Below are positions 4,501-60,399 of a DNA stretch of 64,000 nt, one piece after another. The translations under genes were made by a program, and so were the position numbers. The DNA lies in NCBI GenBank assembly GCA_050084515.1, contig CM114271.1, forward strand, positions 31,186,001-31,250,000. Reading direction: 5' to 3'. Numbering within the stretch: position 1 is the first letter of the stretch; each line of letters opens with the position of its first letter. This stretch comes from Blasia pusilla. Taxonomy: Eukaryota. The notes beneath the pieces were generated by a model, which saw nothing but the letters and a program-made list of their open reading frames with translations, searched no databases and had not been told where the DNA came from.

Positions 4501-7500
4501 GGGATGCGCCACACAATCGGTGTGGTATCCAAGGGTGTCACAATAGCTTTCTTGGCTACCTCGGACCTATCATGCTCTCCACTCTCAAAACCCTAAACCC
4601 TAAAAGTTTCACTCTACGCCGTCTACATATGCTCATCATCCAAGTGTTGAAGCTCCTCACTTGACCCCCATAGTAGCACCTCTCCTCCACGAAATGATGC
4701 GGCTACCATAACACTCCTCTCCCTTGAAGTGTCAGGTGCAGGTGTGTCCTTTGCATGGACATGCCCCTCAATCAAATCACTAGGCCATGTGATGGCGCTG
4801 TTGAATATTGCTACTGTCGCCATCTCTCCCGGCCGTCGCTCGATCACTCCATCGGTAAATCGAACGGATAACAAGCTAAGTCGCCCATCACTTGACTACC
4901 ATCTTGGTCTAAAGGATGCTGACTCCTCCCAGTAATCCAAGAGAAACCCCATTGGGTATAACATTGCTCCTCCAACCAATACGTCATAGGACTCGACGTC
5001 GGTCACTATTGCCTTGGCTTGCACCATGGACTCATCTGATGGATGTCCTAGGGCAAATCCTCACAACAACCTCATATCGGGTGATATAGTGGGTCGTACT
5101 TGCTGCACCCAAGGATGTATGCATCCTGAATGGGCAGCGGTCCTTGTCAAGCCCAATCCTATAAATGCCACCTTCCCCAACGTCAGGGGTTGTGCTCCTG
5201 AATTCAACAAGACGCGCTATGGACAAAATACCCTACCTCCTGGACTCACTAGATGGAAGACCTCTCCTTGGTTATCCAACAAGAAAACACTTAGCAACAC
5301 CATGGCACCCTCTATAGCGGGTCTAGTAGGCATCTCCACCGTCCTAGCCGCCACAACCTGCCATGACTCTGAGATGGACGACTCAAGCATAGGCTCCAAG
5401 GGCAGGTCCACCACCTCCTCTACAATCACCTTGGATTGTGACGCATGAACACCAAATCCACGCTCACATAGCGTAGATGCCAACCGTTAAACCTTGATGG
5501 GCGTACCTCCCAATGTCGTAACATCAGAAGCAAAAAACAATGGGGCGCAGTACATAGCAATGGCCCCCAACAACGTACTTGACACGAGCTCCACCTGAGC
5601 ACCTGCAATAGGAGTCATTGCACTTGCTTGCTTCTTCCATCATCCTCCGTGCCTGCACATCCACGACATCAACCCTCCAAGAACTCTAATCATGACCCAT
5701 CCATGGGGTCCTCATTGGCTCGGACAAAGTAAAAGAGTGAGGAAGCCTTGTATATTTCATGGCCTCCCCTCTCTGCGGATCCAACTCTACAACAGTTACT
5801 TGCGTAACAATAGCGGCTGCTTCCATCTATGCGGCCGCACACATCCAACCAGAATCCTCCATGTCTCTTGCTGCCCCATAAGACGTCCATGTCATTGATC
5901 CGGCATCAGATAACCTCAACGCCATAGCGGCAATCTACTTCTGCAAATGTTGTATCTGAGTAGCCATCCTTGCACGCCTAGCGTCTCCCTTGTCGTGTCT
6001 ACGTAGCAGACCTCTATCTCCTCCGCGGGCAACTATGCCATCCCCTCGGGCAAATCCAACTCCTCGTCCCCCAACAAGACCACATGGCATATGACCTCTA
6101 GGCTCACCCAAATCGGCAACTTGCTCGGGTGCCCTCTCCCGCCCTCGGTCCGGGCATAAATCAAGGTATAGGCTAAAACATTGAGCACATGTATGACCAT
6201 ACCTTTGACAATGATCAAACTGGTAAACTCTTGGTGTAGACCCATCTCCTCCTCCATGTTGAGGAATACGTCTGTTACCGTGACGGATGCAATCGCGGGC
6301 TCCATCATATGCCCAAAAAATAATCCTTGGGGGCTATTGTTGCACCGCATATGATGGCGCAGGTCTCTGTGGCACGGACTCTTGGTATCCTCCGTGAGCT
6401 CGTGGTGCCATATTCCTCTCCCAAAATCCACATTATTGCACTAGTGGTGCAGGCAATCATGATTGCTCTCGCACAAAACCCATGGCTACTACGCTCTCCT
6501 CATCCATATTACGATCAATAAACTCCGCAGTCTCAAAAACATCTCTCAACCTAGGTGAGGTGTGCATAAGAAGTACCCCATCCCTCACCCATTTTTGTAA
6601 GTTTTAGTCCAACATTGCCTACCATGTGTGGATAGCCTGGGACTTTGTCATACCTTGAGTGACTCTAATCAGTGAGTGAGTAAATGCCACAGGCAAACTC
6701 TCATTGTACACCTATGGAAGTTGTGGATGCTCCACAACTTCTCAGTCCATATCCCCTGGGAGTTAATCCGCAACTCCCCAAAGAACTCAACCATAGGGTT
6801 GAACCTAGGAAAAATCCCACTAGACAATATAATTGCTCCATTCCGACTCATCCCTCCTAACACATCATTGGTGGAAGAGGAAGTAGCCTCTCCTAACTCC
6901 TCCTCCTCGTCTAGGAACCGCTTAGTCCATGACACATAGTGTGGATCATAGTGGAGTCTCCATTGCCTCCATGCCTCAATCTCATGGGCATATCTCTGGG
7001 AGAATTCATGGTAATTGTCCATGGGCGTCCCCTCTAATTTTTCGAATATTCTGTTCCATGCTATAAGTAGGTTGAACTCTCTAGAGTTCCTAGCCCGCTA
7101 TGAATCACACCAACACCTAAACTCCGTGATAAAGTTGTGTAACTCTATGGTACCTACAACACCAAAAAACCTACGCGGTCCTCTACCCCGGTCGTCCATC
7201 TCGTACTCCCAGACATTAGCACCACTCATTGTGTGTGGTGCTCACAAACTCCTCTATACCCTCATCTTTTTCTAAAGATGACACAAAATAGGGTTCAGGT
7301 GGTCCCTCACGTGGAACCCCTCAAAACCTTGGGCCACTTTGTATAAAACCTTGAGAGCTACTCTCGGGTGCGGCAAATTGACTATTGTCTCGACAGAATA
7401 TACCCTCAACTCTAAACATCCCACACAGGTCTATGTCCTCTAAACCACATATATCAATGATGCTCTCAACATCTTCACAAAACCCAATATCCCCAAATGA

Positions 7501-33439: not shown

Positions 33440-36400
33440 TATGGTGCGCATACACATTGCTACACAACATACATCGCTGTCGACAAACATACACACACAC
33501 ACACACACGCGTGATCCCATGCTAACTCATGGCATCCAAACAATGAGACAAGAAGTACCAAAATATCTCTATTAAATCAACATCCAATCTCTCTCAACAG
33601 CATAGCTCTCAAATGTGTGCATTCTCACATGTCTCTCTCAATGTCAAACCAAACCCACTCTTCTAATGAGAGGCTTGGGTTACACACACAAGGCAAGCAA
33701 GACCATAGCTCCGCCGCCTCATGCCAAGAGGTTCAACAAAGAGAGAATGATCTCCCAAGCTCTCTGTCCTTAAGGTATACTCCCTTCCCTCTCCCAACCT
33801 CTCTCTCCTCGGTAACCTATGTTTGTAGGTCACCTCCTTGGCTCTTGACCTGTTGTAGCGGGTCAAGGGCCACTTCCAAAAGGGGAAAGTAAACTCTACC
33901 AAATATAGAAACTTACCCAAAATAGCAAGTTTCTTTATATGGCTCCAATGAGCCAAAACGAAGGGGAAACTTGCTCTCTCAAGTTTCCCGAGACCTCAGT
34001 AGGTCATCCTCGACCTCTTGAGCCTGTCCTCCTCTACTTGTGAAGGCGCTCTACCAGATCTCTCCGATCTATCCTAAAATATCTGGACAACTATCGTGAG
34101 CATATACATCGCTACATAACATACATCGCCGTCGACAAACATACACACACACATGCACGATCCCATGCTAACTCATGGCATCCAAAAAATCAGACAAGAA
34201 GTACCAAAATATCTCCAATCCCTCCCCTAACTGGTGGTTACGTCCCTCTAACTCCTGATAGCCATCTATCCCTATCTACTATGACACACATCTCTCGGAC
34301 GCTAAGAGCAAAAAAGCTGGGTGCTCGTGTGGCCCCATCGTTAGTCGCCTTCTTGTCAGCCATGTCACAGACACAAGTCGGAATGTAGAACTACCGACTC
34401 TATGTACATCTGGGATACATCCATCGTCCCTTTGGAACCCTAGTGAGAGGTGGCGTCAGACATGCCATATGCCATCGTCTTGAACATCCATCACAGACTA
34501 GCATAGTGGCTGCACCACGGGCATAACCACACAACATACACCGCAAGGCTGTAGGAACTACTTCTAAGCTCAGATCAATTGTACCTTCAATGTTTGGAAG
34601 ATGACATAGCGCACAATTACGCACATGGTCCTTTCAAACCATACCATCGTGTACCTCCAAAAAGAGAATACTAGATGGAAAAATCTCACGCACTCTCAAG
34701 ATGGTGCACCGTGCAGTCACAACCAACGTCGTAGGTGCCGTGTGCTGCAAGTAGACATAGTCTCCCTAATGAAACCTCCGGATAGTAGGTCGATAACCAA
34801 CTCCTCGAATAGTCTTATACCTCAATGTATCTCGATGCTACGCAATCGCCAAGTTCTCAAATGCCATGGGCATCACTCTCCAAAACAACTTAGCCCTCTT
34901 AGAATATGCTCGTATCCATACATCAGGGTCATCAAGGTTCAACACCTCACCAACATCTTGACGAATGGCTGTAGGTAAATTTGGCTCTCGGCCATACAAA
35001 AGCAACTACAGTGAGAAAGACCCTAAGGATGCATGCTTGCTAAATCTGTATCCCATCGCCAACCAGGGCAACTGGAGGTCCCAATATCCTAGGTGACCTC
35101 TCTCTAAGCCATACTTGCGTAATCCTCTCTTCACCGTCTGCACAACCCGCTCCGCTAGTCCATCTGCCTCAAGATGATCTCGCAAAGTAGTGCAATGGTT
35201 GATCAGCGTCTGATCATACAAGGCCTGAAACTCCCCGCAAAACTCTGTGCCTTGGTCTATCAACACCTAAGTTAATGTGCCATAATGACTCAATACTTGA
35301 TCAAGGAAGGCCTACGCTGTCGTGTCGAGAGTCTTTCTTCGAGTAAGGGCAGGCCTTCTAGCTGCGTCACACGTGATCCATGCAAGGTGAACTCTCTAAG
35401 AAGTTCTCTTTTTTCAATATAAAATTATTATGTATACTCTCCATTCTCTCACGACAGGTATCACAGATGGAAGTGCCGAGGTAATCACTTCTTCGTAGCA
35501 TTGGACCCCAAAATTCCTAACTTTAAAATCCCTATAAACTACTTTACGCTTGTACACAAGAAAGATAGCCTAACTAGTGTTAAACCCTACTTGAGAAGAC
35601 CTATTAGCGTCCATGGATAACTATATAAGGACATACAAAGTACAATCCCATGTCCTTCCATATGTGACAATAGGAAGAATCACCGGAGTTGGAGATTGCA
35701 TGACCTGGTTCATGAATGCCTCCCCAAAGTGATAAACTAAATAGCGAGTGAACCAATGCCTATCTACAAAGAATACCTTGACATGGTATGGATTGAGGAA
35801 AGAAAAGTAGGGCACAACTCGTGCTCCATCCCTATCCATGCTTGATAGACATTCTCTACTCTCCTCAAGAATGAGTTTTGAAGGAATTTTTCTCCCAAGA
35901 GGGGTAATCCACTCTCATTGGGAAAGTAACAAGCCAAAACATTCACTATTTTAGTATGACTAAACTCCTCTAAGGTGACAAGCCTCTCATCTCCACACAC
36001 ACATCATACTCTAGAAACCTCTTGAAGAATAGAGCATGGTCAAGTTACTCTCAGAAGAGGGATGATCCACTCTTATTGGAAGAGCAAGAAATCCCCAAGC
36101 CATACATTCAAGAGTGACATGAGAGACTCAAGATGTGGAATAGAAGGTGATGAACTCGTAGAGGTCCCTCCTCTTTATATACTCACAAGGGTTCCACAAG
36201 AGTACGAAATAGAGCTAATCTTATCTTGTGCCACATGGCTTCCTCTCAAGGCTTAGCCAATCACATTTTGATACAAGTAGATTTCCTCTTATCTTTTCCC
36301 AAATATCATCTTTTACCCACTTGATATTTTCCAAATTACCCCAACTAACATAGCCACCAACCAAGACTACTTTTGCTTTTCATTAAAGCACCAACCTCAC

Positions 36401-38598
36401 TAGTTTACTTTTATAAAGTTATCTTTTATTTATTATCTCTTTTCCTATAGTTGGGTCCGCATAAAAGAGGCACCATAAAGAGGTTTAAACATGGGAATTT
36501 CGTTTTCCTAAGCTAATTTACTTAATACTAATAAAACTCTATCTAACACTTAATGAGGAAGGAGTTTACACACTGGCTGATTTTACTATACTACAACGCT
36601 ACTCCCTCACGTGCTTTGTCAGGCAATGCAACCAACTTTATCCACTTTGAGAAGTGCTCGACCATCACCAACACATAACGACTAGGGCGCTCGGTCAAAG
36701 GCAAAGGTCCTCCAAAGTCCAAACTCCATCTATAACCTAAACCCATGATCGGAAGTCGATGCAACTATAGAGTCCGAGCATTGAACAATGCTCGAACTTG
36801 ATCACACACCATGTATCTAGCAACAAATTGTTGAACGTAAGTCTGTATGCCTCGCCACCAATACTGTATTTGGAGCAAGCTATATGTCCGCTTCACTCCA
36901 AAATGACCCAACTCCTTGTGGGCATGACGCACCAAATGAACTCTGTGGGAAGGATGAGGCACCATCCACACTCTACCATCCTCCCATACTGACGATGTTC
37001 AAACCTCCTTGGTGCACGGTGCGGGTTTGATGGTACGGTGCGGCACGGAACGGCTACAATGGCATAGCACTCGGAAATGGGGTACGGCACTCAACGACAT
37101 ATCCTCCTTAATCAACAAACATTATCGGCTCACGATGATGGTACGGCTTGGCGATCGAGACGGTGCGGTGCAGCCACAAACAACACGACGCAGCAATCGG
37201 CGGCGCGTTGCAGCATGGGCGTCACGGCACGGTACCCAATCATCGTCGAGCGGCTATCTCCTCATGGCATAGCCAAGCGGAAAAGAAACTACAACCCCAT
37301 CACTCCAAAAAGCAGGTTACATACCGTTACTGGCAAAGCACTGGCCGGAAATTGTGTGGTGACAACGGCAGATTTGTTGTAGATGATGTGGACGCACCGT
37401 TGAGTGTAGAATGGCCGTCAATTGACTAACGGAATCCGTCAACGATGTCAGACGGGCATGGATGGCCATCTAACAGATGGCAGCATGGGATCTGGACGTG
37501 GCAGGTACGTGGTCGGACCATGATTGAGCCGAAGGCAGTAGCTCAGACAGTTCGAATGCGGTTAGCGTTCAGCGTCGAGCACTGGCAAGTCGTGAGGCGG
37601 CAGCTTAACTGTCAGCAGTAGGTCATGACGGGGTCAGCTTCAGGAGCCGCGTGGCCGGGATGAAGTCTGGCTAGGCCGCTTATTGGCGGTTCTTCTTGCT
37701 GAACCAACAACGCAAACTACGATAGTAGCAAGAGATCTCGACGACGCAGATTAACCATGTTTTTCTTTGAATTTCAACACGGATAGTCGGGGAAGTCGCG
37801 AGTGGTACGTGCTAGGAACGCCGGCTTCACAACCAAAAATGGCCAAACGGCGAACCGCGTTGGCAGTTTGGTCGGCGGCTCAGCACGGAATGCGGGTCGC
37901 GGTAGGACTGGCTACAACGGGGAAGCGGTAGTAGCAGGGCGGCAGGACCCGGAAAGTAGGATAGTTACGGCAAGGAGTCGGCTATGGCTAGCCGTGACTG
38001 TGCGGCTGGCGATGCTCGGGTGGATACCTATGGTGGCAGAGCTAGTCGAAACGAAAAATGACAATAGGCAGGGTCGACGGCAGTCTAGGGATGGGAAAGT
38101 GCGGCTAAGGAAGGCTGCCAATCAAGATCCAATCTCTCTCAACACCATAACTCTCAAATGTGTGCACTCTCACATGTCTCTCTCAATGTCAAACCAAACC
38201 CACTCTCCTAATGAGAGGCTTGGGTTACACACACAAGGCAAGCAAGACCATAGCTCCGCCGCCTCATGCCAAGAGGTTCAACAAAGAGAGAATGGGCTCC
38301 CAAACTCTCTATCCTTGAGGTATACTCCCTTCCCTCTCCCAACCTCTCTCTCCTCGGTAACCTATGCGGATCAAGGGCCACTTCCAAAAGGGGAAAGTCA
38401 ACTCTACCAAATATGAAAGCTTACCCAAAATAGCAAGTTTCTCTATATGGCTCCAAATGAGCCGAAACGAAGGGGAAACCTGCTCTCTCAGGTTTCCAGG
38501 GATCTCAGTAGGTCATCCTTGACCTCTTGAGCCTATCCTCCTTTACTCGCAAAGGTGCTCTACCAGATCTCTCCGATCTATTCTAAAATATCGTGACA
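33440..38598 (-). mobile_element. Internally deleted member of the same split-repeat Ty3 group (copy B): leader plus INT-PHD only
   Basis: 4-bp TSD TACC (33436-33439, 38599-38602). Repeats: Y2 33440-33569, X2 ~33575-34089, spacer ac, Y1 34092-34215, PPT-like ttaggggagggattg (minus) 34216-34230, X1 ~38120-38598. PHD ORF 34400-34624; integrase pieces 34630-35317 and 36596-36990. 37000-37300 is homologous to the leader at 7680-7935. Confidence 0.9.
35318..36595 (-). mobile_element. Solo-LTR-like element, ~1.28 kb, copy 2, inserted in the integrase of copy B
   Basis: TG..CA termini; 4-bp TSD ACGC (35314-35317, 36596-36599); integrase sequence is continuous across the insertion. Confidence 0.9.
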
Positions 38599-45095: not shown

Positions 45096-45989
45096 GTACC
45101 GCAATGCCGGAATTGCAAGTTTGAATCCAATCTCCACATCGAATCCTCTCCAAACTCCTCGCATCGTCACCTTATCTAATTACCCACATTCTCTATGGGC
45201 AACATATTACTGTTATAACAATTGACTTGGGTGTGCAGGTTCCAATTGACTTGGGCTGTACAGTTCTCTTGGTTGGCATCTACAAACACATTCGGGGAGA
45301 GAACGACATAAGGTAAGTCCTTATTGTTCTCACACTGATTATAGCACTACAAATCTATGTTCCATGTTGTGTTCTGCTAATTTTTTCTCTTTCACTACTA
45401 CAAACTAGTTTCTGTATGCTATTCGCAAGGGCCACTTAATTTCCATGCACAAGTACCTACTGTGGGTATTTTTCTATCACATAATTTTACGCGATAGGGA
45501 GGTGAGACTACTTTACTCAGGTATGCTCATATGAGCCATCTAATTAGCTTAGTATCTCATTCTTAATTGGAACGCTGTTTAGAGTCATAAGTCTTCTCTC
45601 TTCTGCTCTTTGCTTCTATCCCAGCTCCCTCTATCTCGAAGCTCCCCTCGCACCTAGTCGCCATAGACACGTTCCTCTCTAGACACGCCATAGACTATAT
45701 TTGATTCAACTCTCAACAAGCCATCCTTATCCACAACTGCATCATTATCATAATGTCACCAAGTAGAAACCAGGATTACAATTGTGAGCCGCCTAACGAT
45801 AATTTACAACAAATACAACATACTCGTACAAATAGTAGTAGGAGAACACTTTGTCACTCCAACCATCTTCAAAGATTGAATCCTCTAATGAAGTGTAGAG
45901 AGAGAGCTAGGAAAAGGATGTTTGTAACAATGCGACTCTCTTGTAAAACAATGTGCTATCATTGGTCGATTATGGGCCAACTCCTTTCA

Positions 45990-48900
45990 AAATGGAGAAA
46001 ATTATGCCATAACTTTATAAATCAGTTACAATGTTGTGGTTATTGTGGGCATATTCTTTTTCCAACGTCTCATACACAAATGTGTATTTTAAAATCCACT
46101 GAATATCCACCATATGCTTTGTGTTATGGATTCCTTGCTTCCTTCATAATCCCAAGGCTTGGGGAGTTTTACATTTGTGATTTGTGTAGTACTTAAGAGC
46201 CCCGCACCAATTTCAACTCATATATGACTCGTGCATACATGAGAGATATTCTCTCTGCCAATCCATTACACTTACAACTCTTGTCCATTTTTTATTCTCA
46301 AATTGGTATATAGAGCAAATTTAATGAATTTCACAAAGGTTTCTTCCAGCCCACATCTCTAATAGATAACCCATTAGTTGGATGGAGTATTAACACCAAT
46401 TCACGATATAGTGAAGAGTATCCAAAAGTTTCCAACAAACATATTTAACAATGGATGCATATCAATTAGAAGGGAGGCTAATAATAGAGAAATTTTCCTT
46501 ACAGACTCCTCAGGAAAATCTCTTGACAAACGCCTCACTATAGAGATAGACATCTTCCCATTCTTATTTCCCTATCTTCGTGGATATTTCTCCGATCAGA
46601 TTTCTTCCCCTGATTATATAAAAGCAAGATCTAGATAGTTCTTCAGCCTTTTCTCACTCTACAAACCATATTCTTTGATCATGTATCAGTTACGTCAGTC
46701 ACTTTCTCTTTGCTCATCTTCACAGACTTTCATATTGAATAGAGACCTAGACGCACTTAGGACACAGAAGCCTAACCTAGCCGAGGAAGACCTCTACTTT
46801 CACTTATCTAAACACTCAGTGAGCCCGCAAATGCCTAGAAGTCCTTCAAGGCATAGACGTCACTTAAAAGACATTAAGGCCATGGTCCATAAATGGGGTA
46901 TGCCCCACTTTTTTCTAACTCTTACCTCCGATGAGGTATCTGAGACTATGTGGCCTGAAATTGCTTATATTGAAGTAATACTTCAGAAGTTCAACTCTGA
47001 TTTTACATGGAGAGATGCATCAGCCGAGTGCACACAACTCTTCCATACTCGTATTCACACATTCTTATCACGATTTATATTTTTTGGACCACAAATTCTT
47101 GGGAACATATTGGACTATGTACTTAGATACAAGCTTCAAGGTAGAGGTAGCCTTCGCTGCCATATGATAGTATGGGTAGATGCTACATACATTGAACGTG
47201 TAAGTTCAAAATTTGTGTCTACATTCCCCAAGACATTCCCACTTGTCCTACCTCACAAACACCTCAAACTTGCAATAAGCCTTGCTCTCTCCTAGCCAAA
47301 TATGTCAAAACTAAGCAAATGCATAAATGGAAGTATTGTGTATATGCACAGTACAAAATCTAAAAACCAACGGCCATACTATAGATTTGGCTTTCCCGCT
47401 GAGGTTAGCACATCGATAGCATCTGTTATTGACCTAGTAACTTTAAGGTGGAAAAATTTCAAACCCTCCCACGAACACATAAATGTGATACCATACCATC
47501 CAAAAAATACTCTTGTTATGGGGAGCTCACATGAACATACAACGTGTAACAAACACTGAATGGTCTTTCTACTTGTTAAAATATGTACTTAAGCCTGAGC
47601 CAACGAGACCCCTTGATATATATTCATACTACATCCGCAAGGTGTCTAAGACTAGAAATCTTAGATGAGGTGAGGCTAAAACTAGTATCCGGAATGGTTT
47701 TGAACAGAATTGTATCATCCACTAAAGCATGCCTTACTTCAATGCAAATACCCATTATTTTCCGTTCACAAGATGTGAAATACGTACATCGACTAAAACC
47801 CTTCTTTACGCAAAACTTACTTGTACAAACATGCATCATTACCCAGTATACATCCTGCAACTCTCAACTGCAATAGGCCTCCCCAACTTAGGGAACAACA
47901 CATTCATGCAATACTCGTCCAATCATGAACTACTGAAAACTTGCCCTAAAAATAGGCTAAACTCAGTCGTAGGACATGATTCTCTTGGTAACTTTGTACT
48001 AAACACCACAAGGCTTATTACATTTACGGACTTTCATCCATTCCACCTATGGAATGAATTTTCCTTCTCTATATTACTTCAAACCATCCCATTCAGATCT
48101 GAGCACGAATTTCTATCATCTAACTGTAGCGAATGGACATATTTGCATGAATGTCTACATCGATCTATTCTCACAAATTTCAATGACATCCAGAAGCTCA
48201 TAAATGACCATGCCATTTAAAATTTATGGAGTAAAGTTCATACATCAAAAATCATTTCAAAAACTTCTGATATTCTCCAGCCTTACTTATAGCAAGACCT
48301 AAATCACATTGTCAACAAGACTCAACCTCTTTGCTCTACAACCATTGATATTGAAAACATACCTACCCCTCCTCCTGAACCCTCTATACTAAATCGAGAA
48401 CAACTACAACTATTTCACACCATAAATCAATTTTCATCTGGTCTAGTTTTTCGGAAAGGTGCACCTGGTAGTGGAAAGTTTTTCTTCATAAACTTTATGT
48501 GAGCCTATTGGAGTTCCAAGCATCTCTCAACACTACTCACAGCCACCATAGGAATTGCTGCAACAAGACTCCATACTAGTGCTGTAACGTTACTCTTAGC
48601 ATTTTCTATTCCAATTCAAGGTGAGTTATCAAACATGCATGCTTCATCACATAATTCTATTAGATTAAACAAAGCATTAGTTATTGTAGTAGATGAGTGT
48701 TCTAAGCTCACTCCATGTTTATTACAAATTCTAGCAATGAGGTTAGTTGAATGTTCATCCTCACGTGGCCATAATCCATTCAACAGTAAGCTAGTTATAC
48801 TTGTAGGTGACATGTATCAATTACTCCCTCAATGCAACCACAAAGCCAAACCATTTTGTCAAATATGCCATCTATACTCATCACCATTCCTCGCTAATGC

Positions 48901-49130
48901 TGTAACTTATGAATTATCAACACCTATGCAACAATTTTTCTGACCCACCTTTTTTGCTTTAAATTTCTTAAAATCCTTACGGTCTTCACAACCTTCTACT
49001 TCACAAATTCAGACTTGTCTAGGGTATTTCTTTGTAGATAACGATCAAGCTATTGATTTCATCACTGATGAAATAACAATCAATTGCTCCCATCGTTTTG
49101 ATGTGAAGTTATTTAATGGTATTTGTCTTA
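45990..49130 (+). mobile_element. Helitron RepHel pseudogene
   Basis: Rep motifs PHFFLTLT, YKLQGRGSLRCHMIVW, YLLKY; Pif1 helicase motifs GAPGSGK, VIVVDECS, PFNSKLVILVGDMYQL; many stops. Termini not found. Confidence 0.88.
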
Positions 49131-50204: not shown

Positions 50205-50357
<153 letters not shown>

Positions 50358-51242
50358 ATTTGCCACGGTGGATCTCATAATTGAGCAATGGAGCTAATCT
50401 TAACGTGCAAAAACCTACAGAATTAAGAAATATAAAAGTAGGAATATAGAAGGGCAAGTTAGGAAGACGTCTTCCTAGAGAACTACATGTGTCGTGCGAA
50501 TCCACATCGTCATACAACATACATCGCTGACATACCATACTCACATACATACATAACATAGACGAGAGCATCCACAAACACAAGAGTACCACAACTGAAA
50601 TCCGTGAAAGACCTACATCATAAAACACGTATAGAAGCACATACAATCGAGCCAAACCCACTCCACGATGGGAGAATCTAGGTCGAAGCTTGCGGGAAAC
50701 ACCATAGCCAAGAGCTCTACTCACTACCAAGGCTAACTCCCAACGCAACAGGCTCAACTCAAAGAACAGACTGTTCTTTGAGTGCACTCCATCTTATATC
50801 CTCCAACCTAAGAGCGGGCCCTCTTGGAAAACTCTCCCTCAAATGAGTGACACCCAACCCTATGTATGAAATCGCATCTCTACCAAAACACTACGGCCCT
50901 ACATAAGGTATGGCCTCTACTAGCACACTATACTCTACGACATAATCCCTATGGTCATGACAGCTGTCGTGCGAATCCACATCGTCATACAACATACATC
51001 GCTGACATACCATACTCACATACATATATAACATAGACGAGAGCATCCACAAACACAAGTGTATCACAACTCGCCCCCTTAGTGGCGGTTAGGTCCCTCT
51101 AATTCCCAGGTAGCCCTATACATCTACTACATGCTATACACCTTCTTGGGTGCATGAATCAGAAGGCCGGGTGCTAGGTTGCCCCATCGTTAGTCGCACA
51201 TCTGTAATCCATATCATGCAAAGATCAAGTCATCTACCTCTC

Positions 51243-52560
51243 CTAAGTACATCGAGGACAAACCCACCTTCCAATAGGAAAAATATCCATACGTGGAGTC
51301 AAACACATCATGTGCCAACCCCTAGAACACCGATCACACACCAACATACGGGCTGCGTTACCAGCAGACCCACACAACATGCACCTCAAGCTAGCACGTA
51401 TCATGGCTAAGCTTGGGTCAACAGTACCATCCACATTTGGAAGATGATATGGCGCACAATTACGCACATGGTCCTTCCAAACAACTCCATCACGACCCTC
51501 CAACATGAGAACTCCAGAAGCTAACACCTCGCGCACTCGTAAAATAGTACAGCCTGCCGTCACATCCAACGTTGTCGGTGCAATCTGCTGCAAATAGACA
51601 TAGTCTCCCACATGGAACCTACAAATCGATGGTCGAAAACCTCCACCCCGAATGGTTGCATACCGAAACGTATCCCTGTGTTGAGCAATGGCAAGATTCT
51701 CAAAGGCTGTTGGCATCACTCTCCGAAAGAGCTCTGCCCACTGAGAACACACTCTCATCCACATCTCTGGGTCATCAAGGTTCACCACCTCACTAGAATC
51801 CCGACAAATTGCTGCTGGCAAGTCTGGATCTCGGCCGTATAACAGAAAATAAGGTGAGAAGGAAGCCAAGGATGCTTGGCGACTGAACCTATACCCCATG
51901 GCAACTGAATATCCCAGTCTCCAAGATGCCCCTTATGTAGGCCATACTTACGCAATGCCCTCTTCACCGTCTGAACCACACGCTCAGCCAAACCATCCGC
52001 CTCTGGATGATCTCGAGACGTGGTCCGATGATCAATCAACGCCTTGTCACACAAGACCTGAAACTCACCCTGAAACTCTGTACCCTGGTCGGTCAGAACT
52101 TCAGCTGGTGTACCAAAATGACTAAGCACTCTATCAAGAAACGCATACGCCATTCCCTCACTTTCCTTGTCCGGTAATGTCACCAACTCAATCCACTTGG
52201 AGAAGTGCTCCACCATCACCAACACATATCGATGATGTTGTACAGTTTACGGTAACGGTCCCGCAAAGTCCACACTCCAACGGTAACCCAACCCCATAAT
52301 AGGCAAGGGGTGTAATTGTGGTGTAGGGGCATTGAATGATGCCCTCACCCGGTCACAAACCATATAACGTGACACCAACTTCTGCACCTGAGTATGCATG
52401 CCACGCCACCAATACTGGCCAAGGAGTAAGCTATACCCCAAAATGTTCCAACTCCTCATGGGCATGTCATACAATGCGCTCTCTCTGAGCCAAATGCGGC
52501 ACTACTCGTACTCTACCATCCTCCCACACACGGAGAATATGTGTTCCCTCCAATCGATAC
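51243..52560 (-). pseudogene. DDE integrase with C-terminal PHD finger, copy A (frameshifted)
   Basis: YWWRGM...CDRV zinc-binding region; core VDFAGP, TDQGTEF, GLAERVVQTVK; PHD CMLC-x11-CDRC-x3-WHMMC-x12-WVCPRC (C4HC3) at ~51246-51390. Confidence 0.92.
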
Positions 52561-52799
52561 CTCTTAGCACGTTGAAGAACACGGTCTCGCTCCTTGGCAC
52601 TCACTATGCCTGGCACCCTACTGGTCCATAGGAACTCCAATACCAACGCATCATCATGAATATCACGCTGATCCGTACCACCATCTCCAACCTTAGGATC
52701 TGAAGGCTGGCCATCTACCCTCTGACTAGAGTAAGATATCATGTGGTCCTCCATACTAGAGTCCACCCCTAACCAACATAAAAGGGTGGATGCATGCCA

Positions 52800-54332
52800 A
52801 CCTGGCACCATCTCCTCATCAACCTCGCCATGCCATCTAGCCCCAGTTGTATCCTCTTGGCTAGTACATGGGTTCCTACTCAACCCATCAGCATCAAGGT
52901 TGGCAACTCCGGGTCCATGTACCACCTGGAAGTCATATTCCTGTAAGATAAGAGCCACCGTGCAAGCTTCCCTGTAAGCTTGTCAGACTCCATCAACCAC
53001 TTGAGCGGCTGGTGATCAGTAACAAGGGTAAACTGTGTGCCAAACAAGTAACACCTAAAGTGTGCCCACTGCCCACACTCTTGCCAAGCACTCTCCTTCA
53101 TATGAACTATAGCGCGACTCCGCTGCATTATTCGAACGACTTGCATAGGCCACCACAAACTCCATGTGCTCATCATCATGTTGTGTCAACACCGCTCCAA
53201 GTCCCAACCTACTCCAATCAGTGTGTAACTGAAATGGGCGCCCTCTGATATGTCTCCTCAAGATAGGCGCCGCCACCAACTGGGCCTTAAGCTCCACAAA
53301 AGCTCTCTCCTCATCATCTCCCCAATGCCACTCTTGATCTGATTTCAGAAATTGGTTCAAAGGCTTTGCCATAGCCCTAAATCCCTTCACATACCTCTGA
53401 TAGTATTTCGCCAATCCCATGAATGCTCGAACTCTACTCACATCTACCGGACGCGGAATAAGTGCAATAGCCTCCACCTTTGCTTGCTGAACTCCCAAAC
53501 CACCTAGATAGATCACATGACCCAAGTACTCAACATCCTCATGGAAGAACTTACACTTTCTTGGATGCAAACGTAGACCATGAGCTTTCAACCGCTCAAA
53601 CACCATCTGCAAATGTATCTGATGCTCCTCCACCGTGTTACTGAACACCAAGATATCATCAATGTAACACCAAACAAAATCCAGCCCTGCTAGGATCCTG
53701 TCCATCACTCTCTGAAACTCGGCAGGTGCATTCTTCAACCCAAAGGGTAAGAATTTCCACTGGTACAAACAATCCTTGCCATGAGAGTTGACACCCCAAA
53801 ATGCTGCCTTGGCCTTGTCACTCTCGAATCGGCAATTGATGGTATCTCGCCAAGATCAAATACTGAAAATCTTTGCCTGTCCCACCACATCAAAGATCTC
53901 CTCAGGTATAGGCATGGCATACCTATCGGCCTTGGTTTGCCGATTGATAGGAAGATAATCTCCATACATCCGCCTATCCATGTAGTTGCCATGCATATCC
54001 TTTTTAGCAAGCATGACAGTGGCTGATGCATACTCTCCATGCAAAAACTCCACTAATCCAGCCTCCAAAAGGTCCAACGTCCTACTCTGAATCAGGTCCC
54101 TCTCCATATCACTATATCGGTAGGGACGACGGAAGATTGGCGTATCACTAGCCAAATCAATCCGTATACCGGGTCCAACCAGAGAACCCAACTCCTTCAT
54201 GCTAAAGGCAAAACAACTCCTATAAGCACGTAGGAACCGTGTCAGCCGTTTCTCACCTCCCGTAAGCTTGGGCCCAAGTAATGGCTCCCAAGTCTCCTCC
54301 ACTGGCACACTAGAGGGAGAGGACAATGCCAT
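52800..54332 (-). pseudogene. Reverse transcriptase and RNase H of copy A (frameshifted)
   Basis: PIFRRPYRYS, LPFGLKNAPAEFQRVMD, YIDD; RNase H HTDWS, YEGECLA, TDHQPL, DADGLSR, spread over several frames. Confidence 0.95.
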
Positions 54333-54338
54333 TGGCTG

Positions 54339-56399
54339 CTACGCAACCCCCTCACAAGATGGTAAACCCTTAGCTACACCATCATCTGAGCAAATAACTC
54401 CTCCACCAGCATGAGCAACCAACTCCACATGCCCAGCCATTACATCCCATTTACTCCAAGGATGCAAAATACTACTCTCCTCACCCCCAGCCGATGCCTC
54501 TACCGTCCCGGTAGCCATCGAGCTCAATACAAGGGGTGGAAGACCCATAGACATAGTCCAAAGTCGACGCTGCTCGGCCATACCAAGACTCAAAATCCAA
54601 GTCAAACAATTCAGGTCCATGGCCTGACCCAACACATGACGTCGTGAAGCCTCAGAAATGGAAGCAACCGTTGTCACACCAGTAGCAAATCCCATCGCAT
54701 GCTCTCTCTCATCAGCGTTAGGCTCCACCAACTGTCGCACATGAGAATCCCATACAAGCCCGGGACCACCGTCCCTGTATGCATGTGACGAGGGAAAACT
54801 CACAAATGTGGGTAGTGCCATCCTAGGCTGGCCCATACGGTTCACCACTGCCATGGGTGACCGATCAATAACCCTCACCATCTGAGAAAGTCGCCTAGTA
54901 TCCGAGATACTATCCACTGTAAAGCAAGGATCCCGCTGCACTGCATCATATGCTCGACGTAGAACCTCCCTAGGCAACAAGTTTGTCCACCACAAGCGTG
55001 GACGATGTGCACGCGAGCCAACTCGCGCTGCATCCAACAACACCGCTGGTCCAATCCAAGACCGCACCTCATGAACACTCGCCATCATCCGGGTCCGAGT
55101 GTCACCCAACAATGGAACATTCTCCAGAATGTAAGCTAGAGCACGTGCCTGATGAACCTGAAGATGTCGTAACACCCGTAACATCTCCCAAAACAATCGA
55201 GACCTAGGGTCCTGTAATCCCTCACCATGACCAGCACATGTATGACCTTGACATGGCCATCCAGCAATCACTAAATCCACAGGACCAACCCTCTCAAGGT
55301 CCTGCGCCCCCAACAATGCAATGTGTGATGGCAAAGCACGCTGGTACCCATGAATAGCTGATGGCGGCAACAACTCAGGATATCTCCACATCAACTGACC
55401 AATATGTCGGGATGAGACTCTCTGGGCCGTCTCATCTCGCTCCACATACACGTATCTCCGCACAAGAATACCGACCTGCAACACTACAGCCAAACTAGTG
55501 CTAATCCCACCAAAGAGATCTAACACACAAATGCCCTCCGGCGGATACTGCCATACAATGGGTGTAGTATCCAAAGGGGATAATCCAAGTGGACCAGAAG
55601 TAGGAGTCTGCCGTGGGGCCTCCTCTTCCTCGTGATGTATAACAGCCTCACACCAAGCCTCTTGCACTAGGCGATCAGCCTCCTGCCGTAGTGCACCGCC
55701 TGAACTCCAAAGTGGCACATCCAACGATGAGGATGCCACTGCTGCAAAAATAGGGACCTCCTCTACCTCCTCATGCGCAAGAGAATCCATAGCAGAAACA
55801 TTACCCTCCAAAAAGTCTCCTGGCCAAGTGACTACTCCACTAAAACCAGCCACAGATGCTAACACTATTGGGGAAGACCCACCTGGTCGAGCCCCATAAA
55901 TAAATCTCACAAGAACTTGGCTCATACGTCCATCCCCGGACTGCCAACCAGGTCTATAAGACGCTGTCTCAGTCCAGTAATCCATCTCAAAACCCATCGG
56001 GTACAATATTGCTCCTCCAACTAGTACATCATACGACTCGGCTGATGTGACTACCGCATATACTCCTAACCGGGAGCTATCAGTCGCATGATCTGGTCTC
56101 AACTGTACAGAAAACTTCTCCCGTGTCATGAATTGAGACCTATCATTGGCTCCTCCAAGTGATGTTTGAATCTGGAATGGGCAAGGCTCAAGCTTTGACC
56201 TCCGAATATCCAAACCAATACATGCCGCCTTTCCCAACATCAAAGGTTGGGCACCAGAGTCTAACAAGACTCTATCTGGTCTGTACACCTGTCCTGTAGG
56301 ACTCACCAATCGGAATATCCCACTCCGGTTGTCCAACATACATACACCAGGTGTAAGCCTCTCACGATCAATGGCTGGCCGGGCTAGTAATGCATCCAT
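54339..56399 (-). CDS. Pol segment: aspartic protease plus DNMT3-like C5 cytosine DNA methyltransferase domain (~54570-55540)
   Basis: Uninterrupted 686-aa frame. Protease: VLLDSGAQP...DVLVGG. MTase motifs in canonical order: I VLDLFGGIS, II YVERDE, IV DLVIAGWPCQG (catalytic PC), VI YILENVP, VIII DAARVGSRAHRPRLWWTNL, IX EREHAMGF, X LGQAMD. This is part of a polyprotein, so the listed Met is not a proven start. Confidence 0.92.
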   Translation of the reverse strand: MDALLARPAIDRERLTPGVCMLDNRSGIFRLVSPTGQVYRPDRVLLDSGAQPLMLGKAACIGLDIRRSKLEPCPFQIQTSLGGANDRSQFMTREKFSVQLRPDHATDSSRLGVYAVVTSAESYDVLVGGAILYPMGFEMDYWTETASYRPGWQSGDGRMSQVLVRFIYGARPGGSSPIVLASVAGFSGVVTWPGDFLEGNVSAMDSLAHEEVEEVPIFAAVASSSLDVPLWSSGGALRQEADRLVQEAWCEAVIHHEEEEAPRQTPTSGPLGLSPLDTTPIVWQYPPEGICVLDLFGGISTSLAVVLQVGILVRRYVYVERDETAQRVSSRHIGQLMWRYPELLPPSAIHGYQRALPSHIALLGAQDLERVGPVDLVIAGWPCQGHTCAGHGEGLQDPRSRLFWEMLRVLRHLQVHQARALAYILENVPLLGDTRTRMMASVHEVRSWIGPAVLLDAARVGSRAHRPRLWWTNLLPREVLRRAYDAVQRDPCFTVDSISDTRRLSQMVRVIDRSPMAVVNRMGQPRMALPTFVSFPSSHAYRDGGPGLVWDSHVRQLVEPNADEREHAMGFATGVTTVASISEASRRHVLGQAMDLNCLTWILSLGMAEQRRLWTMSMGLPPLVLSSMATGTVEASAGGEESSILHPWSKWDVMAGHVELVAHAGGGVICSDDGVAKGLPSCEGVA

Positions 56400-56847
56400 C
56401 TTCGCATTTCGCCGCCGCTAAGTAGCACTGGTACTCAATGCTACACTTGACATAGAGGGTCGCTCCACCGCAACACCCTCATCCACCTCAAAGACGTGTA
56501 GCAAGAACACCCCACGTTCACACAACGTGGTCGCTAGCTGAAATACAGGAGCTAAGTCAACTCCTAAAGGCATCGCTCGTGGCCGAAAACAATGGGGATC
56601 CCAACACCGAAGTTGCCATCCGCACATCTTTTGCCTTTGGATGTTGCATCCATGTCTACTACACACGATGTAGATGCCTGAGTCCCCACTGTCGGCTCAA
56701 TAGGCTGTGTAGGAACCATGGATAGAGTCCTAAGCACCTCAGACAACAAGAATGACTAGGGAAGCCTAGCCTGCCTCCCAGCCTCACCCCTATGTGGGTC
56801 CAACTCCACTGTAGCACCACGTGGCTCTGACGCTCGAGTAGCTCCTC

Positions 56848-58418
56848 TCATAACTGCAGCTGATGCCTCAACCTGTGCTGCACTCGCCATATAAGAGAGA
56901 TCATCCCCTCCATAAGAGGTGGAAGCCCCTGCTCCCAAACCGATCTATCTTTGGATACCAACCATAGTAGCCAACCTCGCTCCAATCTGCTCAATCTTGG
57001 CGACCATAGCGACTGTCGAGTGATAGGGGTAGCCACCGTAGGCTCTCCAACCACTGGTCCACCTCTATCATCCCTACCGCCTCTACCATCTCGGCCTCTC
57101 GGAGCTACTCCACCACGGCCGTGGCCTGATCTCAACTCTCGATGAAGATCAAAGCAACGCTCTCGAGGATGACATGGTCTCCCGCAATGATCACACTGAG
57201 TTGGGGCCGAGTGAGGCCCATCCTCCAAAGTCCGTCTCCTATCCTCTTGGGGACAAAACTTCCTAACATGATCACGTCCACATGTCCAACATGATTGTCC
57301 TTGCTGCGGGGCAGCAAATAAAGGCAATGGTCTTTGCGCAAGTATCCCTCTAGGACCTGACTGAGGTCGTGTGTACCCCCCACGACTCCCACTACTACTA
57401 CCACCACCACTACTACGAGACGTGAGGTGGGCTGCTGAACACGAGAAGTAGTAGTTGTATCCCTACTGAATGCGGATGTCACCACTCTCTCCTTCACCAT
57501 GTTAAGCTCAATCTTCTGAGATAGAGCAAACACATGGGTCAATGTGGGTGAATCATCACTCATAAGAGTAGCATCACGTATCCTACGGCGCAAGTCTCTG
57601 TCCAAGATCCCATACCAAAACTGGACTGCCTTAGCCTCAGTCACACCCTAGGTAACTGAAATCAAGCGTCCCATACGAGTGTATGCCTCACGAAGACTCT
57701 CACCAGTCTTTCGCTCAAATTCCTGAAGACTCCTCAACTTCTCTGTCTTCACTCCCTGATAGTTCTTCTTCAACCTCTTGAAGAACTCTACATCCGGGCT
57801 GAACGATGGTGGGGCACTAGTACCTCCACTAGTACCCCCACTAGTACCTCCATGGGTACCTCCACTGGTACCCCCACTCCGGCTCGTACTCGTACCACTC
57901 AACCTTGGGCTGGCTGGCATAGTAGGAGCACTACTACCAATACCACCATGGGTGATAGACACATATCCTGGAGACCAATATTGTCTCCACGCCTCAATCT
58001 GAGCAACATGGTCCTTCCTAAACTCATGGTATTCATCCATGGGTGGTCCTTCCAAGTGCTGAAACAACCCCTTCCAAGCCAAGAAGGGTGTAAACAACGT
58101 AGCGTTCCGCAACATCTGCATATCACACCACGTATCAAACTCCTGCATGAAGTCCTCCAACTCAATGGTGCCCACTACACCCGAGTATCGTCGTGGGCCC
58201 TTCATGGCCCCATATATCCCGTCCATGTTCCAAATCAATGGAGCTGCAACACTCGATAACAACGTAGAAGACTCGGTGTTTGGAACACCCTCATCCTCCT
58301 CGTCATCAACCGTCGGAAGTGGAAAAGGTAGCTGATACCTAAATCCACTTCGTGTGAAACCACCACTGTCCGCACCACGGTCCCCAACCACACCACCCGA
58401 GAGCTCCGTGATGACCAA
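56848..58418 (-). pseudogene. gag of copy A with two zinc knuckles (in-frame stop and frameshift)
   Basis: Gag-like ERKTGESLREAYTRM; in-frame TAG at 57648-57650; knuckles CWTCGRDHVRKFC and CDHCGRPCHPRERC followed by an RGG-rich tract; SGGT repeats at ~57815-57880. Confidence 0.85.
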
Positions 58419-59891
58419 CGCCGATGCCGCACCACCACCAAATTACCACCACCAACTAACCAAGTGACGTCGATGTCGCTATACTATTCTAGCTCTACTA
58501 GCTATGGGTGTAGGCAACCTAACCTGTCATCACCACAAGAAGCCTCCCACGGTCTACTGGTCATCACTCCAACATCACTATCGGTAGCACACAAGAGTAA
58601 CACTACTATGGAAATCAGCGTCAATCCTAACAATGGGCGCGCAAGCAAGAAGCAACGATGGAGGGGATCCAAACACAGGAAGTCCAACGAAAATCCTCCA
58701 ATCGCAAATGGAAATCAAGGTAACACAATCCACCAAACGTGGTGCCCCTTGAATCCACAAAACCCACCACACAATTCTAACGCAATAGCTACTCCGCCGC
58801 GGGTCGATGACGTGCTAGTCGAACTCGCAGCACTTGAAAATATCACCTGCATGGAGAGGCTACACCGTACTATGCGCTAGAGGTAAATTGACCAAAACCC
58901 TGAGATGCATAAAGCGCCTAATACATCTCCGAACAGCACCAAATGAGCTACAACACTGTGTACACTGGCATAGTTAAGAACTCAGCAGTTAAGCGTCCTC
59001 CAGGTACAATAGTCCAAAGATGGATGACCAATTATGCAACACTCAAATCACAAATCCTGCAAAATTTGCCTCACGCCCAAGCACTTGCTCCTTGCTCCTT
59101 ACTCCGCCTCTCACGCCCACTTGCCCTGAGCTAGTCCGCAAAATTTCGATCAGCAATTACTTCACAAATCTATGACCAAAATCAAATTTGTTTCAACCAG
59201 ATTCAATGGACCACCATAGCTATCTCTCCACAAAAAATCAGCTACAACCGAGCTCTGTACTCCGAGCTAAAAATCAGACAAACTTGCTGTCCATACACCT
59301 TCAGAATTGCGAATCCGACAACGCTTCCGCCAAGTTTCATGCATGCAGAAATTCACAACGCTCCACACACTCGAGCATATAGCTTCACATGAGATCACAA
59401 TACAAGTAGCAACAGGAACCTCTCACCCGATCTGGATGAACTTCAAGAGAGCTTCCGCACTCCAAGCTCTCCACATCAGAAAACCGTCGAACATGAACCA
59501 GAATCTTCAATCCTTGATAACTTCCAACTCCATTAACAAAATTCGGCGATCTAAAGCACGTTGGAAAGCTCTCAGCAAGGTGCTTCTCTCCCAACCAACC
59601 ACGCACCAGATTCACACTTCCAACATAGGCCACAAGCCACGAACATCCACGGCTGAGTACACAATCAGCCCTAACCAGATCCTACTGATCCACAATCGAT
59701 CTACTCCAGTTCTTTGAGTGAAATCCGTGAAAGACCTACTGTCATAAAACACGTATAGAATCACATAATATCAAGCCAAACCCACTCCAGGATGGGAGAA
59801 TCTAGGTCGAAGCTTGCGGGAAACACCATAGCCAAGAGCTCTACTCACTACCAAGGCTAACTCCTAACGCAACAGGCTCAACTCAAAGAAC

Positions 59892-59922
59892 TGATTGTTC
59901 TTTGAGTGCACTCCACCTTATA
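59892..59922 (-). promoter_or_regulatory. Putative core promoter in X1: TATA box and initiator
   Basis: Minus-strand TATAA at 59922-59918 and TCAGTT Inr-like motif with its A at 59892, 30 nt downstream. Confidence 0.6.
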
Positions 59923-60399
59923 TCCTCCAACCTAAGAGCGGGCCCTACTGGAAAACTCTCCCTCAACTAAGTAACCCCCAACCCTATGTATGAAATCGCA
60001 TCTCTACCTAAACACTGCGGCCCTACATAAGGTATGGCCTCTACTAGCACACTATACTCTACGACATAATCCGTATGGTTATGACACATGACTTATAATA
60101 ACCAAAATTTTTTCATGTGAGTGTGTTGGCGGGAAGTGTAAGGCCGGCGTGACCAAGAGAAGAAACTAAACAAAAATGCACTCCTCTCAATACCAATCGA
60201 GGGATGAGTTTTTTTAAAGGAATGATCTATCAGCAGATACAAAAGTGGCTCTTCATAATAACTTACTTGAGATGCAATTTGAATCCACGTTATTTTGATT
60301 TAAACCTCTCCAATTGTAAATTGCATGTTAGTGGCCTCCGTTCCTCTAATATGAGTTTCCTAATAGAAATTGTGCAGCTCTTAATCTTGGTGTAATTCT

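Follow-up and report, generated by a model that had tools for sequence, protein, structure and literature searches.

Evidence for a DNMT3-like methyltransferase domain ahead of a conserved stop codon in a dead Ty3/Gypsy-type retrotransposon copy from Blasia pusilla

DNA methylation is the main weapon of the host against transposons. A transposon equipped with a de novo DNA methyltransferase (DNMT) of its own is therefore a paradox. The case described here comes from a 64,000-nucleotide stretch of the Blasia pusilla assembly GCA_050084515.1 (contig CM114271.1, positions 31,186,001 to 31,250,000), the whole of which is referred to here as the window. An earlier note, made from the letters alone, had placed a DNMT3-type cytosine methyltransferase at 54570-55540, embedded in the Pol polyprotein of a retrotransposon between the protease and the reverse transcriptase (RT). 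What is this domain, does it belong to the element, and what might it do there? With regard to both identity and architecture, we hold with high confidence that the region encodes the methyltransferase domain of a Ty3/Gypsy-type retrotransposon, in a copy that is now dead.

The domain was located in a single open reading frame (ORF) which it shares with the protease.

54342..56417, minus strand: open protease-DNMT reading frame of 692 codons, the surviving C-terminal part of the first ORF of the element (ORF1), from the ORF list
54543..55532, minus strand: DNMT3-like C5 cytosine methyltransferase domain with motifs I-X unpermuted, from Pfam, phmmer, profile and AlphaFold2/Foldseek
56013..56279, minus strand: retropepsin-type protease with the active site LLDSGA, by homology to the relative P0073

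With its stop codon included, the ORF spans 54339..56417, and the frame is bounded by a decay stop upstream (56420-56418) and by a conserved TAG downstream. Its translation contains motifs I (VLDLFGGIS), IV (AGWPCQ, with PCQ), VI (ILENV, with ENV), VIII (HRPRLWWTNL, with RxR), IX (EREHAMGF) and X (GQAMD), all present and colinear, at about 55523-54609 on the minus strand. The C5 methyltransferase motifs named in the earlier note are real, fall within the span that it gave, and are in frame with the protease in one uninterrupted ORF. The coordinates therefore held, with the qualification that the motifs are read on the minus strand; when translated on the plus strand, 54570-55540 is riddled with stops.

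The class of the enzyme was examined by sequence and by fold. A Pfam search, which had been proposed as a check, matched the family DNA_methylase (PF00145) at E 2.4e-9, with 37.5 bits against a cut-off of 22. In a phmmer search of PDB with the single sequence, the top chain was DNMT3A (E 2.4e-13), followed by DNMT3C (6.4e-12) and DNMT3B (2.3e-11), and distant matches were obtained to tobacco DRM (1e-4), HaeIII (4e-4), HhaI (2e-3) and DRM2 (0.016). DNMT3A aligned colinearly to query residues 17-220 and 291-323, from motif I to motif X, and in this alignment the window string DAARVGSRAHRPRLWWTNL was paired with DAKEV-SAAHRARYFWGNL of DNMT3A, the very likeness on which the DNMT3 assignment had first been based in part. 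DRM is a permuted enzyme, and in keeping with this its chains matched by their C-terminal part alone, to query residues 14-141. A family profile built from alignment A1 (32 family DNMT domains) ranked DNMT3A (6.5e-28), DNMT3C (2.9e-26) and DNMT3B (2.5e-25) ahead of DRM (1e-17 to 1e-14), HhaI (1e-9) and DNMT2 (3e-6), and retrieved no DNMT1 or CMT chain from PDB at E<=0.01. The AlphaFold2 model derived from the same alignment had a predicted local distance difference test score (pLDDT) of 91.2 and a predicted template modelling score (pTM) of 0.89. When it was compared with PDB by Foldseek, every chain among the matches listed, to rank 49, was DNMT3A, DNMT3B or DNMT3C (best E 2.3e-19, target TM-scores 0.41-0.85, identity about 20%). 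By E-value ranking and fold matches, the domain is closer to DNMT3 than to DRM, DNMT1/CMT, DNMT2 or the bacterial enzymes. This agrees with the earlier choice of DNMT3 over DRM, MET1 and CMT, and the colinear alignment with DNMT3A bears out the unpermuted order.

A PWWP and/or ADD domain at the N-terminus is a feature of animal DNMT3. No Pfam family of either reader domain was found in the 692-residue ORF or in the ORF1 models of its relatives, and the domain is therefore named DNMT3-like rather than canonical DNMT3. Within the 32-sequence alignment, the catalytic Cys and the ENV, RxR and ERE residues were invariant or nearly so. A larger alignment of 193 DNMT domains contained 62 columns that were at least 80% conserved, and the window copy deviates from the consensus at four of these (family median, five). 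The comparisons showed a complete and unpermuted domain of a predicted DNMT3-like enzyme.

The ORF lies within a 9.6-kb element of the Ty3/Gypsy type, at 50490-60086 on the minus strand, whose remaining parts are given below in the orientation of the element.

60087..60090, minus strand: 5' target-site duplication, CATG in element orientation, read from the sequence
59719..60086, minus strand: repeat A1, 5' terminal, starting TGTCAT, 94.3% identical to A2 over 368 nucleotides (nt)
56581..58226, minus strand: decayed gag with a CX2CX4HX4C zinc knuckle (ORF 56848-57462), from tblastn
54333..54341, minus strand: conserved in-frame stop with its context TAG CAG CCA, candidate readthrough site, from a 50-locus comparison
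53058..54338, minus strand: RT and RNase H, decayed, with a stop at 53858-53856, from Pfam
51896..52349, minus strand: DDE integrase core, decayed, Pfam rve 2.5e-13, frames by tblastn with the relatives P0072 and P0044
51249..51383, minus strand: PHD finger at the C-terminus of the integrase ORF, Pfam PHD 7.8e-10
51070..51080, minus strand: purine-rich tract AAGGGGGCGAG at the start of B1, by its sequence a possible polypurine tract
50965..51071, minus strand: repeat B1, 97.2% identical to B2 over 107 nt
50596..50962, minus strand: repeat A2, 94.3% identical to A1
50490..50596, minus strand: repeat B2, 3' terminal, ending CGACA, from repeat comparison
50486..50489, minus strand: 3' target-site duplication, CATG, read from the sequence

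These features showed a layout of A1, gag (CCHC), retropepsin, DNMT, conserved stop, RT, RNase H, DDE integrase, PHD and B1-A2-B2. The order of protease, RT, RNase H and integrase, together with an integrase of the DDE type, is that of Ty3/Gypsy elements (Metaviridae). The RT and RNase H region was recognised by three Pfam families (RVT_1 7.1e-26, RT_RNaseH_2 3.5e-24 and RT_RNaseH 2e-15), and the integrase core is damaged by a stop at 52249 and by frame changes near 52300 and 51900. The protease was identified through P0073, to which residues 12-198 of the window ORF are 40% identical (E 7e-40); the aligned part of P0073 (763-849) matches Pfam Asp_protease_2 with 28.3 bits against a cut-off of 24.3. 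In the window copy itself, Pfam at E<=5 gave no direct match to a protease and, for gag, a weak Retrotrans_gag match (0.31) alone. The gag was recovered by tblastn with the Marchantia ORF1 models P0057, P0058 and P0059 at 48-70% identity, across four frame changes and with stops at 57650, 56947 and 56758; its zinc knuckle reads CWTCGRDHVRKFC. As for the PHD finger, which follows the integrase in many relatives, the closest solved fingers are those of KMT2C/D, CHD4, DPF2/3, ATXR5 and PHF21A and PHD1 of KDM5A/B, which we take to be mostly readers of the unmodified histone H3 tail.

The ends of the element were compared with those of related loci from metagenomes (80 loci in all). The termini TGTC...GACA fit the TG...CA rule, and 4-bp target duplications were found in three independent insertions, namely CATG in the window, CATA in L078/L062 and TCTC in L038. 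Two identical flanking long terminal repeats (LTRs) are absent; A stands at the 5' end and B-A-B at the 3' end, an arrangement which equals a circular permutation of B-A...B-A. The same A...B-A-B arrangement was present in L078/L062 (one insertion) and L038, and L002 showed A...A up to the end of its contig. The A and B repeats were not found in five other long loci (L035, L036, L042, L023 and L076).

The stop codon between DNMT and RT bears on the place of the domain within the element. In the window, the TAG at 54341-54339 is followed by CAG CCA ATG, and the RT frame is the same as the DNMT frame. The homologous codon could be compared in 50 of the 80 metagenome loci, those with an alignable RT start, which represent 45 distinct sequences at 99% and are not fully independent. 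It was TAG in 35, TAA in 14 and GAG in one, and hence a stop in 49/50; directly 3' of it, CAACCC was found in 46/50. DNMT and RT were in one frame in 37 loci, all 37 of which carried the stop, and the other 13 had frame changes in the DNMT-RT linker. Protein models gave a similar picture. In those named by NCBI, the distance from the domain to the C-terminus is 66-70 residues for Marchantia (P0057, P0058, P0009 and P0011), Calypogeia (P0003) and Sphagnum jensenii (P0045), as compared with 67 residues in the window ORF, and uniformly 86 residues in a second clade of models. Decay of the copy as the origin of the TAG was ruled out by this conservation across loci. Divergent loci (L053, L056, L058, L063-L067, L074 and L077), which belong to a more distant subfamily from the same metagenomes with a DNMT identity of 41-49%, have 6-23 stops in the linker frame and are too decayed to show whether the stop was kept.

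Since the stop is conserved at one codon, the DNMT would end ORF1 (Gag-protease-DNMT). By these comparisons, the predicted DNMT is the C-terminal domain of ORF1, and it lies between protease and RT only in a presumed readthrough product. The proposed position inside Pol between protease and RT was therefore right as to order and frame, and the conserved stop that separates RT from the DNMT speaks against a domain simply inside Pol. RT, integrase and PHD are probably reached by readthrough of the stop codon. Leaky UAG codons of plant viruses follow the CAR-YYA rule; the context CAG CCA of the window fits this rule, and the CAA CCC of the loci is only a partial match.

Relatives of the domain were collected by protein searches, which returned 55 proteins of near length and 40 longer ones. 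Among the named relatives are numerous models from Marchantia polymorpha (65-77% identity), proteins of Calypogeia fissa and of three Sphagnum species and, at 33-35% identity, proteins of the green algae Chromochloris zofingiensis and Haematococcus lacustris; close relatives in all three bryophyte genera are annotated as hypothetical. The Marchantia ORF1 models P0057, P0059, P0006 and P0009 are 87-93% identical to one another, and P0057 (Mp_4g09160, 1278 residues) is an uninterrupted frame of Gag (CCHC), protease (DSGA) and DNMT (PCQ, ENV). Such likeness among models, together with the uninterrupted frame of P0057, suggests that the Marchantia elements may have been active fairly recently. When 1.84 billion representatives, each standing for a cluster at 50% identity, were searched by phmmer, the number of matches was 3540 at E<=1e-3, falling to 805 at 1e-10 and to 232 at 1e-30. 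The nearest cluster in the ESM Atlas is eukaryotic, with Streptophyta as its commonest phylum.

The surroundings of the domain were similarly consistent. Among the 80 metagenome loci, protease was found upstream in 47, RT downstream in 62 and both in 38, so that the order protease-DNMT-RT was seen in all members wherever the flanks were present; RNase H was directly upstream of the DNMT in none (0/80). Domain layouts were then mapped in 239 relatives using the pieces of the window element itself, and two were distinguished: protease-DNMT(-RT-RNase H-integrase-PHD), with protease-DNMT in 53 proteins, and RT-RNase H-DNMT-integrase-PHD, in 38. Both were confirmed by Pfam on selected proteins (P0078, P0081, P0092, P0096 and P0008). 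In the sister clade that includes Chromochloris and Haematococcus, the DNMT is located between RNase H and integrase. One change of layout suffices on an unrooted FastTree tree of 193 DNMT domains, and on an unrooted quick IQ-TREE tree, made from a random subset (28/49 of type A, 32/86 of type B, and the window), the layouts are split by a branch with a Shimodaira-Hasegawa-like approximate likelihood-ratio test (SH-aLRT) value of 96. On the latter tree, the window is placed alongside a protein from Sphagnum troendelagicum, adjacent to the group formed by Marchantia and Calypogeia.

The occurrence in a land plant, which the earlier note had offered as an extension of what was known, is borne out by the relatives in Marchantia polymorpha, Calypogeia fissa and Sphagnum; it would rest on named relatives at 74-78% identity and on the tree position among bryophytes. 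Selection on the domain was estimated by the Nei-Gojobori ratio of nonsynonymous to synonymous substitution (dN/dS), another check that had been suggested. Between the window DNMT and 31 loci, the median dN/dS was 0.21 at a dS of 0.74, with 0.17 for the protease, and 97.8% of 493 pairs had a dN/dS below 1. Taken together, the comparisons showed the predicted DNMT to be a stable and selected part of a large element family in bryophytes, with green algae differing in its placement.

How does this element compare with known systems? The precedent named in the earlier note is borne out. De Mendoza et al. (2018, Nat Commun 9:1341, PMC5890265) describe KnitGypsy-Dnmt3 of the charophyte alga Klebsormidium nitens, in which a DNMT3-like domain is carried without introns in a Gypsy-type polyprotein; the K. 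nitens transposon copies form a divergent Dnmt3 clade in the published tree and have a dN/dS below 0.2. The element described here resembles it in its unpermuted, intron-free DNMT3-like domain, Gypsy-type polyprotein, purifying selection and streptophyte lineage, and in the A-coding-B-A-B repeats, as in DIRS elements; it differs in its host, a bryophyte-type genome as opposed to a charophyte alga. According to the same text, SymbioDIRS-Dnmt3 of Symbiodinium likewise has a DNMT3-like domain in a polyprotein, A-coding-B-A-B repeats and two coexisting domain orders, whereas it is a DIRS element with a tyrosine recombinase and ours has a DDE integrase and 4-bp duplications (PMC5890265). Its enzyme was shown to methylate CG in yeast (PMC5890265); the activity of the present domain is a prediction.

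Cellular DNMT3A, DNMT3B and DNMT3C (e.g. 5yx2, 6u8p and 8tci) share the catalytic fold and motif order and are the best match in sequence and structure. They differ in that identity is about 20%, the ORF here lacks PWWP and ADD, and its insert between motifs VIII and IX is longer; moreover, the PHD finger is located on the integrase and not on the methyltransferase. PHD fingers on transposons have a parallel in REM1 of Chlamydomonas, cited as a PHD-bearing element in PMC6673714. Chromoviruses and other reader-bearing LTR elements are comparable in having a histone-reader module at the C-terminus of a DDE integrase, presumably for the choice of integration site. The reader here is a PHD finger instead of a chromodomain, and a writer, the DNMT, is carried in addition. 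Readthrough of a stop between Gag and Pol is known from gammaretroviruses, and leaky UAG codons from tobamoviruses. The single in-frame UAG between an upstream ORF and the RT ORF resembles these systems; it differs from the gammaretroviral case in that the stop follows protease and DNMT rather than Gag, and that the loci carry CAA CCC.

From this architecture a mechanism may be proposed. ORF1 (Gag-protease-DNMT) would be the main translation product, and occasional readthrough of the UAG would yield Gag-protease-DNMT-RT-RNase H-integrase-PHD and set the ratio of the ORF1 product to the full polyprotein. The protease would then free the DNMT and the other domains. Because the DNMT is placed in ORF1, it would be made in Gag-like amounts and travel with the particle, which makes methylation of the element's own complementary DNA (cDNA) more plausible. 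In or just after the particle, the DNMT would methylate the new cDNA de novo, in a reaction dependent on S-adenosylmethionine (SAM), so that the new copy would already bear a methylation mark like that of the host when it reaches chromatin. Integration would be guided by the PHD finger, which would direct the integrase towards nucleosomes whose H3 tail is unmodified. As the function of the DNMT we tentatively favour this de novo methylation of newly made element DNA, at somewhat less than an even chance; the remaining probability would be shared by methylation of the host site, self-restraint and non-catalytic roles. The full chain, namely an ancient Viridiplantae-wide lineage of DDE-integrase elements with a DNMT3-like writer and a PHD reader, a single move of the writer, its placement in ORF1 before a leaky stop in bryophytes, packaging, and methylation of cDNA before integration, must be considered unlikely to be correct in all of its parts.

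Several observations weigh against the favoured reading as a whole. Catalytic activity of the domain is predicted from sequence and fold, and the K. nitens enzyme gave no methylation in yeast, a result that its authors regarded as inconclusive (PMC5890265). The DNMT3 placement is drawn from the PDB E-value ranking and the fold search, and the readthrough is proposed from conservation of the stop. No protein named from Klebsormidium was found among the relatives from the protein searches, so that kinship to KnitGypsy-Dnmt3 rests on the shared architecture. One of the four deviations of the window copy replaces the motif III Asp of the family by His. The ratio of observed to expected CpG in the element (0.61) was no different from that of the whole window (0.58). 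Stop-free DNMT stretches were found in 2/31 metagenome loci, and among the loci themselves the dN/dS was 0.55 for the DNMT (0.41 for RT and 0.56 for the protease), which implies that most copies are decaying. The overall pattern of substitution points to a lineage that was under purifying selection and whose sampled copies are mostly decaying.

The state of the window copy belongs with these points. Outside the protease-DNMT frame, stops were found at 57650, 56947, 56758, 56420, 53858, 53057, 53018, 52985 and 52249, with three more in the linker and about six frame changes, giving about 15-18 disruptions in all; the copy is a dead pseudogene. Its RNA was examined in three raw-read RNA-seq runs (X22, X23 and X24) with a matching species label, which come from one study only and of which 6-12% each was read. 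Between 2192 and 2547 reads per run fell on 50400-60200. In nearly every bin, first mates on the plus strand outnumbered those on the minus strand more than tenfold, which under the customary library convention marks the RNA as sense transcripts. Most reads were 95-99% alike to the copy (e.g. 2309/2416 in X22), and 107/2416 X22 reads were at least 99% alike. As the reads differ from the copy at fixed sites, the transcripts come from sister copies, and the window copy itself is at most weakly represented.

Two further observations were made in the same reads. Some read pairs skip 987 nt of the integrase region (51715-52703), with nine other letters in between (14 pairs in X22, 25 in X23 and 43 in X24), which points to expression of a sister copy that has lost or exchanged an internal part. 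In addition, two X22 reads join 60086 to 50490 with two letters in between; this joint could equally be a circle or tandem junction or the B1-A2 junction of a sister copy, and it was not counted as evidence.

The alternative that survives best, which we nevertheless consider rather unlikely, is that the DNMT is selected without acting on the element's own cDNA, its substrate being host DNA at the insertion site or RNA, or its main role being that of a DNA- or chromatin-binding module alongside the PHD finger. The absence of methylation by KnitGypsy-Dnmt3 in yeast would suit such a role, as would the several alternatives discussed by de Mendoza et al., who name self-methylation of cDNA among their ideas together with others, including slowed transposition (PMC5890265). 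The PHD finger also points to chromatin targeting. The conservation of the catalytic Cys, ENV, RxR and SAM-binding motifs, the 62 columns conserved to at least 80% and the dN/dS of 0.21 argue for an enzyme; since catalytic and SAM residues are not needed for binding, a pure binding module is the less fitting form of this alternative. By its fold and its closest relatives, the domain belongs with DNA enzymes and not with DNMT2.

A second alternative concerns the stop, which might be a true terminator, with RT-RNase H-integrase-PHD expressed through splicing, reinitiation, a subgenomic RNA or supply in trans. Some Marchantia models, such as P0008, skip about 300 nt around the stop in the manner of an intron, and the CAA CCC of the loci matches the CAR-YYA rule only in part. 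Against a terminator, the second ORF shares the frame of ORF1 in the window and in 37/50 loci, interrupted by just one stop whose codon position is fixed, and the six bases after it are near-invariant (46/50); no independent ATG start for the second ORF is evident beyond the ATG located 6 nt after the stop. We therefore judge termination to be quite unlikely, and retain readthrough as the probable route to RT.

It is also conceivable that the host exapted the open frame of the window copy as a methyltransferase gene and has preserved it while the remainder of the element decays. The protease-DNMT frame has zero disruptions in 2076 nt, whereas about 15-18 fall in the remaining ~4.9 kb of coding sequence (within 51246-58226); the Poisson P(0) is about 1e-3, although this comparison is post hoc and the copy was picked for its open frame. 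The deviation at 4/62 conserved columns, against a family median of five, would agree with retention. Set against this are the change of the motif III Asp to His, the RNA reads, nearly all of which differ at fixed sites (107/2416 X22 reads being at least 99% alike), the stops within the DNMT in 29/31 loci, and the fact that no promoter of its own was shown for the ORF. Exaptation is thus very improbable. Lastly, an artefact, in which a host DNMT3 gene lies beside or is interrupted by a retrotransposon or the motifs match by chance, has in its favour nothing more than the general frequency of chimeric transposon/gene annotations, and is hardly credible, being refuted by the protease and DNMT in one uninterrupted frame, the protease-DNMT-RT order in the 38/80 loci with both flanks and in named proteins of three bryophyte genera, the target duplications that bracket the whole unit, and E-values of 1e-9 to 1e-28.

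The element kind itself is already known from KnitGypsy-Dnmt3, as described in the text cited above (PMC5890265). The organisms behind the 2018 report, a dinoflagellate and a charophyte alga, are not easy genetic systems. The present results extend an algal rarity to land plants, as elements of this kind are common in liverworts and mosses, the model Marchantia polymorpha among them. What the present work would add is the location of the DNMT in ORF1 before a conserved stop, the PHD finger, the existence of two layouts, the wide range of the family and its occurrence in a model liverwort. Judging from the 232 clusters at E<1e-30 and from a DNMT tree on which the two domain orders are cleanly separated, the family appears much larger and older than had been described. 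Full-text searches of the literature turned up no earlier account of such elements in bryophytes and no mention of the Marchantia gene identifiers, although supplements may list copies; later papers name only 'streptophytes' in the portions available (PMC12344493; 10.64898/2026.05.21.726589). Given that Marchantia polymorpha has intact ORF1 copies, the question of transposon-encoded DNMTs could become genetically testable in a model plant. If the proposed self-methylation is true, new copies would arrive already marked by methylation before they integrate.

The rest of the window was found to be rich in transposons. Pfam recognised no host gene in ten other long ORFs, in which Helitron-related domains alone were found, and an Rfam scan of all 64 kb returned 0 matches. 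A second element of a related subfamily is located at 1450-7184 on the minus strand, with 42% identity to the first copy in protease-DNMT and 62-67% in RT. Its DNMT matches the relatives as far as 4164 and then again only from the motif X region (4161-3985) onwards, with about 180 DNMT residues, roughly motifs VI-IX, missing in between. A third relative is a fragment at 34403-36695 (with further pieces at 33444-33505 and 34224-34367), whose integrase and PHD are 66-71% identical to those of the first copy, and which is followed downstream by B-like and tail-like repeat remnants. Helitron-like ORFs occupy 45708-48943 on the plus strand, with Helitron_like_N (1.8e-17) at 46642-47295 and a PIF1 helicase (2.6e-11) at 48506-48943. 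At 50211-50356, just past the 3' end of the element, about 146 nt form a perfect (CT/GA)n microsatellite. Outside the window, other retroelement pieces (RT, RNase H, integrase and sometimes PHD) were seen beside the DNMT elements in the metagenome loci L036 (14649-16511), L020 (1-2013) and L062/L078 (3007-5050), which fits nested insertions in repeat-rich DNA.

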